From positions 1 through 22,914 of IMG/VR virus record IMGVR_UViG_2703718780_000024: a stretch of DNA of 22,914 nt, one strand, 5' to 3'. The notes beneath the pieces were generated by a model, which saw only the letters and a list, made by a program, of their open reading frames with translations, did no database searches and was not told where the DNA came from. The position numbers and the translations under genes were made by a program. The stretch comes from a virus (lineage: Duplodnaviria > Heunggongvirae > Uroviricota > Caudoviricetes). Of the stretch, positions 1,553 to 22,412 are shown piece after piece (the stretch's first letter is position 1; each line of letters starts with the position of its first letter).

Positions 1553-1741
1553 TCACGAGGACTGAAGTTTCTCGCAATTAAAATTTATCAGTTTTACTTT
1601 CTGCTCTCTGGAAACGCCTGCTTCTTTTTTACCTGAGAGCATTTTTTCGCATTCTGATTTCGTTAGTTTAGATTTTGAATATCTTGTCCAGTTAGTAGGA
1701 GTGCCACCTTCCTTTTCAATAGTGGCGGTAATTTTATACAT
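1553..1741 (-). CDS. Small prophage protein (YdaC-like), 62 aa
   Basis: ATG at 1741 is preceded by GGAGG at about 6 nt spacing. It lies in the leftward early operon between ralR and xis. Confidence 0.5.
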   Translation of the reverse strand: MYKITATIEKEGGTPTNWTRYSKSKLTKSECEKMLSGKKEAGVSREQKVKLINFNCEKLQSS

Positions 1742-1928
1742 GAACACCTCCATTATTATTTCCAGTGGTTCGTTTATTTCATCGTTCGAGTGCTTCTTTT
1801 TCACTTCCACCATAACCGGTTCGGGATTCGCATCCGTTACACTTCGCTCGGTAATATCCTGAAATGGCTTTCACCGTTACTGATGGACAACCACAAAATG
1901 GACATGGTTTAACATTGTCATATCTCAT
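1734..1928 (-). pseudogene. ralR: RalR/Lar-like restriction-alleviation gene with an in-frame TGA at 1779-1781; 49-aa product if translated from 1928
   Basis: Translation from ATG 1928 gives MRYDNVKPCPFCGCPSVTVKAISGYYRAKCNGCESRTGYGGSEKEALER, then TGA. The same frame continues NKRTTGNNNGGVHV to a TAA that overlaps the next gene start. The Cys-rich N-terminus matches RalR as I recall it. Confidence 0.55.
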
Positions 1929-1983
1929 AATTTTTCTCATAAAAATATTTCAAGTTGGCGGTGCATTACACCGCCAGGCTGAA

Positions 1984-5581: not shown

Positions 5582-5773
5582 TTAAAGTCCTGCCGGTATT
5601 TCGTTATTATTAGTGTGAGTAGTTTTATCTACCGGATAACAGTTACCGGGAATTTTTTGTTCTGCTGCTGCAGCCATGCATTCTTTCATTGAACCGTATA
5701 AGCCAGTCACCAGCTCAAGAGATTCGCCGGAAACAAGATAAACTGTCAGAACGAGTGCAAATGTTGTATTCAT
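5582..5773 (-). CDS. Small protein with hydrophobic N-terminus (signal peptide or TM helix), 63 aa
   Basis: ATG overlaps the upstream gene stop (ATGA), with AAGGA about 9 nt upstream. The N-terminus MNTTFALVLTVYLVSG is hydrophobic. Confidence 0.45.
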   Translation of the reverse strand: MNTTFALVLTVYLVSGESLELVTGLYGSMKECMAAAAEQKIPGNCYPVDKTTHTNNNEIPAGL

Positions 5774-5958
5774 TGTTTATATCCTTTTTGCAGCAGGTCC
5801 AGACGAGCCAGCATTGAAGGAATGCATACTTCATTTAACAGGTCCTGCTCGAGTTTTCTCTGCTTAATGGCGTCTTCAATAAATGTTTTGTCTCCAGTGA
5901 TAACGCCAATTTCGAAACGAAGTTCAGACGTGCTGGCATTACATGATAACTTTTCCAT
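5770..5958 (-). CDS. Hypothetical early-left-operon protein, 62 aa from the internal ATG
   Basis: Internal ATG at 5958 is preceded by GAGGA at about 7 nt. The longer six-frame ORF to 6063 has no comparable RBS. Confidence 0.45.
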   Translation of the reverse strand: MEKLSCNASTSELRFEIGVITGDKTFIEDAIKQRKLEQDLLNEVCIPSMLARLDLLQKGYKQ

Positions 5959-6413
5959 TATCGCGTCCTCAACAATGAATTTTGTGATGCGGTGCCTAGT
6001 GCCTCCAGGTGACGTTAACCAGTTAACAATTAACGCCGGATACAGAGAATCCACCCATAACACTGTTTTTGGTTTTAACTGTTCCGCGTGCGCTGAGCCG
6101 CATTCACCGCATCACAAAATTCACTTTTAAAAAAGGGCGGCAGAGCAGTCACGGAGTAAAACTGATACCGCCAAATGTCACCAGAATATTGATAACAGAG
6201 GGCGTTGTAGCGGGGTTGTCACTTAAGCGTATGGTCAACCTGACAACCCGGTGTCCTCAACTGGGGAAGGAATAACCCCGCCATACTTACCGCCGCGCCA
6301 TTTCGCGGATTGCCACAACCGGAAGCGCACGTTCGAAGAAATCTAACGACAAGCCTTCTAAGGGAAAGAGCTTCGCCGTACGCTTTCGCGTTGTGTGCCT
6401 GCTTTTAACCACG

Positions 6414-19143: not shown

Positions 19144-19219
19144 GGCCCTTTAGCTCAGTGGTGAGAGCGAGCGACTCATAATCGCCAGGTCGCTGGTTCA
19201 AATCCAGCAAGGGCCACCA
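19144..19219 (+). tRNA. tRNA with CAU anticodon, most likely tRNA-Ile2 (ileX/ileZ-like); tRNA-Met not excluded
   Basis: 76-nt cloverleaf with acceptor GGCCCTT/AAGGGCC, T-loop TTCAAAT, anticodon loop CTCATAA and encoded CCA. It closely resembles E. coli ileX as recalled. Confidence 0.85.
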
Positions 19220-19319
19220 TCACAAACCGCCATTAGCTTATCAGGAAGAGCAGACGACACCATAACAGGGTTGTTGGTGCGGGGGCGGGTCCCCGATGGC
19301 GGTCCATTATCGGTATTCT

Positions 19320-19396
19320 GCGTTGTTAGCTCAGCCGGACAGAGCAATTGCCTTCTAAGCAATCGGTCAGTGGTTCGACTCCACTACAACGCGCCA
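19320..19396 (+). tRNA. tRNA-Arg (anticodon UCU)
   Basis: 77-nt cloverleaf with acceptor GCGTTGT/ACAACGC, anticodon loop CTTCTAA, T-loop TTCGACT and encoded CCA. Confidence 0.85.
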
Positions 19397-20161: not shown

Positions 20162-20474
20162 TTTTTTTGTTTGCTGTTTATTAAAAACACTTCTGCATGG
20201 TGAATCCCCCTGTGCGGAGGGGCGATCAGCAACCAGGTATATGGGATAATCGCGGATTCAGGTGCTGATACTGAATTCACCGGGAGGCACCCGGCACCAT
20301 GCTTTGCCACAAAAGTGTTGTTTCTGTTTTTCTCAAACTATCATCGTTATCCCTTTATTTCCGGCTGCGCATGGCGTGGCCTTTTTTTACGACCAGCCAC
20401 TGGCAGATGGCCATCCTGTAATTTGATTCCGGTTCCGGCTTTTTAACTCTGTTCCTGTACACGGGAGAAATTCG

Positions 20475-22412
20475 ATGTCGATTAAACATTATGATGTTGT
20501 CAGGGCGGCGTCGCCGTCAGACCTTGCGGAAAAGCTGACACAAAAACTGAAGGAGGGGTGGCAGCCATTTGGCAGCCCGGTGGCCATCACGCCTTATACT
20601 CTGATGCAGGCCATTGCGGCGGAAGGTGATGTCACCACACCTGTGTTGGTGAAGCCGTCGGATGGAGAAGGCACAGTAATCAGCGCCACCAGAGACCCGG
20701 AGTATTACTTTGTTGTGGTTCTGGCGGGGCAGTCAAACAGCATGGCATATGGTGAAGGCCTTCCGCTGCCGGAGACATATGACCGTCCGGACCCGCGCAT
20801 TAAGCAGCTGGCGCGTCGCAGTACGGTGACACCGGGCGGTGTCGCCTGTAAATATAACGACATCATTCCGGCGGACCATTGTCTGCATGATGTGCAGGAC
20901 ATGAGCCGCCTTAACCATCCGAAAGCGGACCTGTCAAAGGGGCAGTACGGAACCGTGGGGCAAGGGCTGCATATCGCCAAAAAATTGCTGCCGTTTATAC
21001 CGGCGAATGCGGGCATTCTGCTGGTTCCGTGCTGTCGTGGTGGTTCAGCGTTCACCACCGGAGCCGATGGCACATACAGTGACGCGAGTGGTGCCTCGGA
21101 GAATTCAACCCGCTGGGGTGTGGACAAGCCGCTGTATAAGGACCTTATCGGTCGAACAAAAGCAGCACTGAAGAAGAATCCGAAAAATGTGCTGTTTGCC
21201 GTGGTGTGGATGCAGGGGGAATTTGATTTTGGCGGTACGCCGGCAAATCACGCAGCACAGTTTGGTGCGCTGGTTGATAAATTCCGTGCAGACCTGGCGG
21301 ATATGGCAGGTCAGTGCGTCGGTGGCTCTGCTGGCGGTGTTCCCTGGATATGTGGAGATACGACGTATTTCTGGAAGCAGAAGAACGAATCCACGTACCA
21401 GACGGTGTACGGCAGCTATAAAAACAAAACGGAAAAGAATATCCATTTCGTACCGTTCATGACCGATGAGAACGGGGTGAATGTGCCGACGAACAAACCG
21501 GAAGAAGACCCGGACATTCCGGGTATCGGATATTACGGTTCGAAATGGCGTGACAGCTCAGCCACCTGGACGTCACAGGACAGGGCGAGCCATTTCAGCG
21601 CCTGGGCACGCCGTGGGATTATTTCCGACCGTCTGGCAACGGCGATTTTGCGCCATGCGGGAAGAGTGGCGCTAAACGCGGGGGCATCATCGACAGTATC
21701 AGAGGTGCGCCCTTCATCGCCTTCCGGTGCAGAAGCCACAGGCGTCACAACACTGCTCTCTTACCTTGCCAGCGAGTCAGAGGGAAGCCTGAAAGTACAG
21801 GGATGGTCAGCCAGTGGCGGCAGGGCAGAAGTGGTCAGCGATGCGGAGGGAACCGGAGGTAAGGCAGTGAAGCTGACCAAGGAGGCCGGTAAAAGCAGCT
21901 GGGTGCTGGAGTACGCCGCGGGCAACGGTGCGGCTCTGTTACAGAAAGGGGGGCAGATTCGCTGCCGCTTTAAGGTTTCGGGAGCGCTGGCTGCGAACCA
22001 GTATGTTATGGCGTTTTACTGGCCGGTCTCTTCACTGCCACAGGGCGTTGCCCTGACCGGAGACGGGGGGAATAACCTGCTGGCAGCGTTCTACATCCAG
22101 ACAGATGCAAAAGACCTGAATGTGATGTACCACAATGCGAAAGTGGCGACAAACAACCTGAAACTGGGAACCTTTGGCGCATTTGATAACGAATGGCATA
22201 CGCTGGCTTTCCGCTTTGCCGGGAATAACAGCCTTCAGGTGACGCCGGTTATTGATGGTCAGGATGGCACACCGTTCACGCTGACGCAGTCACCGGTCAG
22301 TGCATTTGCGGCGGATAAACTGCATGTGACAGACATTACCAGGAATGCGACTTACCCGGTACTGATAGACAGCATTGCGGTGGAAGTGAACAGCACAGAC
22401 ACTGCGGCATGA
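20475..22412 (+). CDS. nanS-p: Prophage-encoded NanS-p-type sialate O-acetylesterase (N-terminal DUF1737, SGNH/SASA esterase core, C-terminal lectin-like domain), 645 aa
   Basis: 645 aa with N-terminus MSIKHYDVVRAAS and a GQSN esterase motif (VVVLAGQSNSMAYGEG). Architecture and length match the esterases found downstream of stx in EHEC prophages. Confidence 0.8.
   Translation: MSIKHYDVVRAASPSDLAEKLTQKLKEGWQPFGSPVAITPYTLMQAIAAEGDVTTPVLVKPSDGEGTVISATRDPEYYFVVVLAGQSNSMAYGEGLPLPETYDRPDPRIKQLARRSTVTPGGVACKYNDIIPADHCLHDVQDMSRLNHPKADLSKGQYGTVGQGLHIAKKLLPFIPANAGILLVPCCRGGSAFTTGADGTYSDASGASENSTRWGVDKPLYKDLIGRTKAALKKNPKNVLFAVVWMQGEFDFGGTPANHAAQFGALVDKFRADLADMAGQCVGGSAGGVPWICGDTTYFWKQKNESTYQTVYGSYKNKTEKNIHFVPFMTDENGVNVPTNKPEEDPDIPGIGYYGSKWRDSSATWTSQDRASHFSAWARRGIISDRLATAILRHAGRVALNAGASSTVSEVRPSSPSGAEATGVTTLLSYLASESEGSLKVQGWSASGGRAEVVSDAEGTGGKAVKLTKEAGKSSWVLEYAAGNGAALLQKGGQIRCRFKVSGALAANQYVMAFYWPVSSLPQGVALTGDGGNNLLAAFYIQTDAKDLNVMYHNAKVATNNLKLGTFGAFDNEWHTLAFRFAGNNSLQVTPVIDGQDGTPFTLTQSPVSAFAADKLHVTDITRNATYPVLIDSIAVEVNSTDTAA

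Follow-up and report, generated by a model that had tools for sequence, protein, structure and literature searches.

Lar and Ral proteins act on type I restriction systems; for Lar, which is the same protein as RalR, this was reportedly described by King and Murray in 1995. The anti-restriction role of RalR has been disputed (Guo et al. 2014, PMC4041452), and the protein is better documented as the toxin in the RalR/RalA pair, a type I toxin–antitoxin system (PMC4041452), in which a 16-nt repeat is shared between RalA and ralR (PMC4041452). In an error-prone PCR screen, changes at RalR residues 14, 37, 39, 49, 51 and 52 lowered toxicity, alteration of codons 43–46 also abolished it, and a residue-52 mutant, once purified, showed no cleavage of DNA (Guo et al. 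2014, PMC4041452). The control mutant of that study is named inconsistently: Table 1 gives pCA24N-ralR-A154G as K52G, whereas the Methods and the Figure 2 legend have K52Q, and A154G in an AAA codon would give GAA (Glu), unlike either. The introduction of the same paper describes the chromosomal hok-like type I loci of K-12 as apparently inactive (PMC4041452). The main text of the EcoSal review makes no mention of Lar or RalR.

Here we describe the ralR locus in a stretch of 22,914 nucleotides, analysed as a whole and referred to as the window. It covers the left arm of a Rac-like lambdoid prophage together with its early region, with the genes in the order intR, xisR, DUF1187 gene (rcbA/ydaC homologue), ralR, recT, recE-like gene, dicB and onward. 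The window shares with the K-12 Rac RalR/RalA system both the locus and the order recE-recT-ralR-rcbA/DUF1187-xisR-intR at ttcA, which lies just outside intR in identical genomes and is the integration site of Rac, Sp10 and CP-933R (PMC4632033).

The ralR frame stops at codon 50

The ralR frame starts with the ATG at 1928–1926 on the minus strand and stays open for 49 codons, MRYDNVKPCPFCGCPSVTVKAISGYYRAKCNGCESRTGYGGSEKEALER, until it is closed by a TGA at 1781–1779. Past this stop, the same frame continues for 14 codons, NKRTTGNNNGGVHV, to a TAA at 1736–1734, which overlaps the ATG at 1741–1739 of the downstream DUF1187/rcbA gene. The K-12 annotation (locus L002; ralR 1624–1818, rcbA 1811–2020) has the same 8-nt overlap. 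For the ralR frame of the window, positions and codon counts agree to the base with the first-pass annotation of this DNA, which had read the locus as a ralR-like gene, had listed a TGG-to-TGA nonsense change among the possible causes of the stop and had taken the TAA as the place where a full-length gene would end. Alignment of full-length alleles bears out the nonsense change, and the gene does end in an overlap with the next ATG in K-12 and in seven other alleles.

The openness of the 14 codons is not significant in itself, since a random stretch of this length has no stop in about half of cases; it follows from the identity of the local DNA with the full-length K-12 allele. The segment also holds the GGAGG ribosome-binding site of the DUF1187 gene. 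Some phage-record annotations choose an in-frame ATG at 1940, giving a product of 53 residues, and RefSeq places the start at 1928 (Table 1).

Table 1. Positions of the features discussed, numbered along the window
Feature	Position	Strand	Basis
Truncated ralR CDS, 49 codons + TGA	1779..1928	-	Translation; RefSeq CDS WP_001443846.1, same coordinates in identical genomes
Premature stop TGA, codon 50 (ancestral TGG, Trp50)	1779..1781	-	Alignments to K-12 and other alleles
Former ralR C-terminus, now untranslated (codons 51-64, NKRTTGNNNGGVHV, + TAA)	1734..1778	-	DNA identical to K-12
Alternative in-frame upstream ATG (MRKIMRYD...)	1938..1940	-	53-aa ORF in mechanical ORF list
Window/K-12 difference 1: T-run, one T fewer in window	1946		
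Window/K-12 difference 2: ralR codon 49, AGA to CGA, synonymous	1784		
Window/K-12 difference 3: ralR codon 50, G to A, TGG to TGA	1779		
Window/K-12 difference 4: T vs A, at stop codon of DUF1187 gene	1555		
RalA antitoxin sRNA, full length	1557..1735	+	Rfam RF02694, 225.1 bits (gathering 170), model 1-179/179
RalA segment complementary to ralR mRNA	1619..1632	+	Direct-repeat family D1
RalA pairing site in ralR mRNA (codons ~42-47, SEKEAL; core AAAAAGAAGCA)	1791..1804	-	Direct-repeat family D1
DUF1187 family gene (K-12 rcbA/ydaC homologue, 62 aa)	1553..1741	-	Pfam PF06688, 132 bits; annotation
Methyltransferase block: C5-cytosine methyltransferase (PF00145; +), convergent PF20553 and GHKL ATPase (PF13589, HATPase_c_3; -)	13565-17064		

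Four positions in 501 bp set the window apart from K-12, and of these the base at 1779 alters codon 50 of ralR: the window has TGA instead of TGG there, and its product has 49 residues as against 64, lacking W50-N51-K52-R53 and the tail. Codon 50 is TGG in every full-length allele examined (K-12, Z0117, RM13322, O157 N8B7-2, 13E0780, VG48B2 and H9). Seven other alleles, diverged by at most about 7%, all have TGG, a ralR of 195 bp (64 codons) and a stop codon that overlaps the next ATG, and TGG is therefore the ancestral state. The window carries a genuine, heritable nonsense allele, W50* (TGG to TGA), of ralR in a Rac-like lambdoid prophage at ttcA.

The TGA allele is common

The exact 61-mer centred on the TGA is present in 310 of 5426 complete E. 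coli genomes, and a further 1250 contain it with one to three mismatches; all sampled members of the latter group have a full-length ralR. A 551-bp region around ralR was found in 1923 complete genomes, so that carriers of the TGA 61-mer make up about one in six (310/1923) of the E. coli genomes with this region. When 60 evenly spaced rows of the 551-bp matches were inspected, about 10 were 100% identical to the window. The whole 22.9-kb window is matched at 100% in seven complete genomes, including O157:H7 MB41-1 and O103:H2 PV16-126. Carriers of the allele include O157:H7, O26, O111:H8, O103 and O102:H6 strains from several countries. At the protein level, the exact 49-residue sequence occurs on at least 1000 contigs and bears the label MULTISPECIES; RefSeq lists it as WP_001443846.1, named as an intact RalR and without a pseudogene flag.

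A sequencing error, one of the explanations offered by the first-pass annotation, does not account for an exact 61-mer in 310 complete genomes and an exact protein on that many contigs. We thus reject a sequencing or assembly artefact, as the same base is found in 310 independently finished genomes.

Three prophage-derived phage records also carry the 49-residue allele. These records begin at the integrase and look like excised prophages, with no evidence of a viable virion. The TGA allele is identical over the 551 bp in approximately 300 genomes and shows no further decay, and relaxed constraint on ralR is therefore not demonstrable.

The TGA is also seen on other backgrounds. A 49-residue variant (MRYDD...) in draft assemblies has the same codon-50 TGA on RM13322-like flanks. 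In the draft assemblies GCA_029409855.1 (L010, 1501–1650) and GCA_023188855.1 (L011, 1501–1650), L011 reads CGA-TGA and L010 reads AGA-TGA, with mosaic switching near the stop; neither 61-mer is present in the 5426 complete E. coli genomes. Many STEC genomes have two Rac-like copies, and some carriers of the allele show a second 551-bp match to the ralR region. For L010 and L011, recurrent mutation is no likelier an explanation than chimeric assembly or recombination between Rac-like prophages in the same cell, and we draw no claim of selection from the TGA on these backgrounds.

The stop codon removes an invariant motif of the Lar domain

The 49-residue product corresponds to the zinc-ribbon part of RalR/Lar, with C9, C12, C30 and C33. 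Compared with the Lar_restr_allev family (PF14354; TIGR03655), it shares the PCPFCG...C..C core and scores above the curated cutoffs, but the C-terminal W-N-x-R, which the family keeps without variation, is missing from it. The match to PF14354 (Lar) has 39.0 bits over profile positions 2–52 of 58 (cutoff 28.6), compared with 53.5 bits over positions 2–58 for full-length RalR. With TIGR03655 (anti_R_Lar), the score drops from 55.3 bits for the full-length protein to 40.3 bits, which barely passes the cutoff of 39.6, and the NCBIfam model NF007260 (RalR equivalog) is passed with 126.9 bits (cutoff 113). The PCPFCG motif and the four-cysteine zinc ribbon (C9-x2-C12 ... C30-x2-C33) are thus retained, whereas the W-N-x-R motif that closes the Lar domain (profile positions 53–58) is absent: the stop replaces W50, with N-K-R still encoded in the DNA behind it.

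A profile search of 1.84 billion representatives returned 3968 members of the Lar family. Among the best 150 of these 3968 matches, we took the 76 representatives of single-domain size. W50, N51 and R53 are invariant in 76 of these 76 distant relatives, level with C9, P10, F11, C12, G13, C30 and C33, although the invariance of W-N-x-R is somewhat inflated by the choice of the best-scoring matches to a profile that contains the motif. The first-pass annotation had allowed for homologues that end naturally at this position. None of the 76 distant representatives ends before position 55, and no natural short homologue was found in the databases: short entries are the same allele, point variants or partial sequences at contig ends, and all those of 49 residues come from this E. 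coli allele or from near-identical ones.

An AlphaFold2 model of a full-length homologue with 92% identity (mean pLDDT 77.9) has a beta-hairpin zinc ribbon at residues 17–30, a single helix at residues 43–52 and a disordered tail beyond approximately residue 55. According to this model, the stop takes off the last helical turn together with the W-N-x-R motif. Among solved structures, the sequence search gave no significant relative, and the best Foldseek hit (E=0.14) belongs to generic zinc ribbons.

Residues 51 and 52, where substitutions lower toxicity, lie beyond the stop of the window, and the 49-residue form is therefore inferred to be non-toxic. Its toxin and DNase activities are predicted to be lost, on the grounds of the invariance of the missing residues and of the published point mutants at positions 51 and 52. 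The opposite view would be that the short form is a functional isoform, which binds DNA, alleviates restriction or acts in a dominant-negative manner to protect against a second full-length RalR. The allele is indeed common (310 complete genomes) and annotated as intact, its product keeps the four zinc ligands and an above-cutoff profile score, and some carrier genomes have the second 551-bp match. Nevertheless, no distant relative ends before position 55, W50, N51 and R53 are invariant, single changes at residues 51 and 52 already lower toxicity and the residue-52 mutant cuts no DNA, and hitch-hiking on a successful prophage would account for the frequency of the allele just as well. We thus regard a functional short isoform as quite improbable and retain loss of function.

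Read-through and recoding at the UGA

The stop codon is a UGA with A in the +4 position and is preceded by CGA. Since this context is comparatively leaky, a near-cognate tRNA-Trp might re-insert Trp50, and wild-type 64-residue RalR would then be made at a few percent of normal output, as a toxin attenuated in dose and perhaps responsive to stress. In E. coli, tRNA-Trp reportedly misreads UGA with particular ease when A follows (Engelberg-Kulka 1981, as cited in PMC5289835), mass spectrometry finds mostly Trp in TGA read-through products, and such read-through increases at low temperature and nutrient scarcity (PMC11126739). Moreover, the frame downstream of the TGA is still open and identical to wild type. 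This openness is, however, accounted for by how recent the mutation is and by the next gene's ribosome-binding site. High values of read-through were obtained in K-12, which has an RF2 allele described as inefficient (PMC11126739), whereas the allele studied here is found in non-K-12 strains. There is no stimulatory structure downstream of the stop: the 63 nt from codon 49 onward have a minimum free energy of -6.2 kcal/mol (z=+0.34; 118 of 200 shuffles fold as well), with no pairing in the predicted fold for the first ~30 nt behind the UGA. Finally, nothing shows selection for leakiness, and we judge unprogrammed read-through of this kind to be physically plausible but unlikely.

It appears very unlikely that UGA-A serves as a dimmer rather than an off-switch, with a low level of wild-type RalR that rises in cold or starvation. 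If it did, translational fidelity would form an additional layer of control on a type I toxin that is already under RalA and Hfq, and the same TGA on the L010 and L011 backgrounds would reflect selection for that state. We give little credence to any biologically meaningful role of UGA read-through in ralR.

Recoding, also put forward by the first-pass annotation, fares no better. Incorporation of selenocysteine is unsupported and was rejected, as the sequence 3' of the UGA forms no hairpin (see the fold above) and matches no SECIS family at E<=10. In favour of a prfB-like +1 frameshift, the +1 frame has no stop between 1813 and the DUF1187 gene, which it enters (86-residue ORF, 1553–1813), but the same open frame is equally present in K-12. 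A prfB-type CUU UGA C site with an upstream Shine–Dalgarno sequence is absent: the sequence reads GAA CGA UGA AAU, with no Shine–Dalgarno-like element upstream. We therefore also rejected a frameshift into the DUF1187 frame, for want of a slippery site and because of the K-12 sequence. Artefact and programmed recoding together, whether as a sequencing or assembly error, selenocysteine or a +1 shift, are extremely improbable.

RalA is intact and the downstream gene keeps its own ribosome-binding site

RalA is present at full length in the window and is 100% identical to that of K-12. It is antisense to the DUF1187/rcbA gene and is both adjacent to ralR and oppositely oriented. Its pairing with the ralR mRNA comprises 14 contiguous pairs, including one G-U; the site, like RalA itself, is intact and identical to K-12, and 9 nt separate its 3' end from the ralR stop codon downstream. 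Since RalA and its pairing site are untouched, the locus would consist of an orphan antitoxin beside a dead toxin.

The DUF1187 gene of the window ends at a TGA (1553–1555) after 62 codons, and so does every allele examined other than that of K-12. There the corresponding codon is AGA and the product has 69 residues, as opposed to 62 in the window and most strains; relative to other alleles, K-12 rcbA is an unusual extended form. As the DUF1187 gene keeps its own GGAGG, the loss of overlap-type coupling to ralR need not silence it.

Two database proteins, P0012 (67 residues) and P0015 (96 residues), are RalR–DUF1187 fusions and correspond to approximately 1553–1928 of the window. P0012 (...SEKEA/GVSREQKV...) is the exact product expected of a deletion between the 16-nt RalA/ralR repeats at 1619–1632 and 1791–1804. 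The repeat may thus double as a deletion hotspot that removes most of RalA.

On the other side of ralR, a GC-rich hairpin (GGCGGTG-TAATG-CACCGCC; 1955–1975, minus strand) follows the recT stop and precedes the T-run at 1946, which is one T shorter than in K-12. Hairpin and T-run are terminator-like and located immediately upstream of ralR, and the hairpin could influence ralR transcription or read-through from recT.

Prophage context and restriction

The first-pass annotation had linked the loss of restriction alleviation to a putative restriction–modification-like island in the same prophage. This island lies approximately 11.6 kb from ralR and consists of a C5-cytosine methyltransferase, a PF20553 protein (putative O-methyltransferase) and a GHKL ATPase. 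PADLOC assigns the C5-cytosine methyltransferase to MTase_II, and the other two genes match no known defence-system model; the block may represent an uncharacterised methyltransferase-associated module. None of the 37 annotated features of the window is a type I hsdR, hsdM or hsdS gene, and the proposed link between ralR and the island is not supported: their juxtaposition has no demonstrated meaning.

Elsewhere in the window, the DicF sRNA is found at 6135–6186 on the minus strand (77 bits, above gathering), with dicB at 5770–5958. A sub-threshold STnc100-like match (33.9 bits, gathering 47) is located at 5981–6121 on the minus strand, just upstream of dicB. tRNA-Ile and tRNA-Arg genes are present at 19144–19396. 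The RefSeq annotation of an identical genome lists a DUF4014 pseudogene with a frameshift and a hypothetical gene that is both partial and frameshifted (12155–12372 and 20356–20498 of the window), and there is therefore some decay elsewhere in the prophage.

Discussion

A loss-of-function toxin allele with an orphan RalA, in a Rac-like prophage, is very probably the best explanation overall. In the proposed sequence of events, the ribosome would stop after residue 49 and release the zinc ribbon with most of the single helix, and the Lar domain would lose its closing motif, the invariant W50-N51-x-R53. Due to this loss, the 49-residue protein most likely lacks toxicity and has neither DNase activity nor a Lar-type effect on restriction. 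The TGA allele most likely represents ordinary gene decay and involves no new mechanism; it is an already catalogued, common allele of a characterised prophage toxin gene. Our literature searches turned up no account of a truncated ralR in EHEC.

The situation resembles that of the hok-like loci of K-12 in that a simple mutation would have inactivated a toxin whose regulatory RNA is retained. In contrast to those loci, the lesion here is a single nonsense codon in an otherwise pristine locus of a widely distributed prophage.

The finding is chiefly practical and amounts to an annotation caveat, with major EHEC serotypes among the carriers. RefSeq names the product of the TGA allele an "endodeoxyribonuclease toxin", despite the absence of the family-invariant motif and of residues needed for toxicity, and surveys of toxin–antitoxin or anti-restriction genes that count the 49-residue entry as functional would overestimate their number. 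Likewise, results obtained with K-12 RalR/RalA, such as fosfomycin tolerance, are not transferable to carrier strains without testing. The locus opens no new question, but it offers a clean case of a type I pair in which the toxin is most likely dead and the antitoxin intact.
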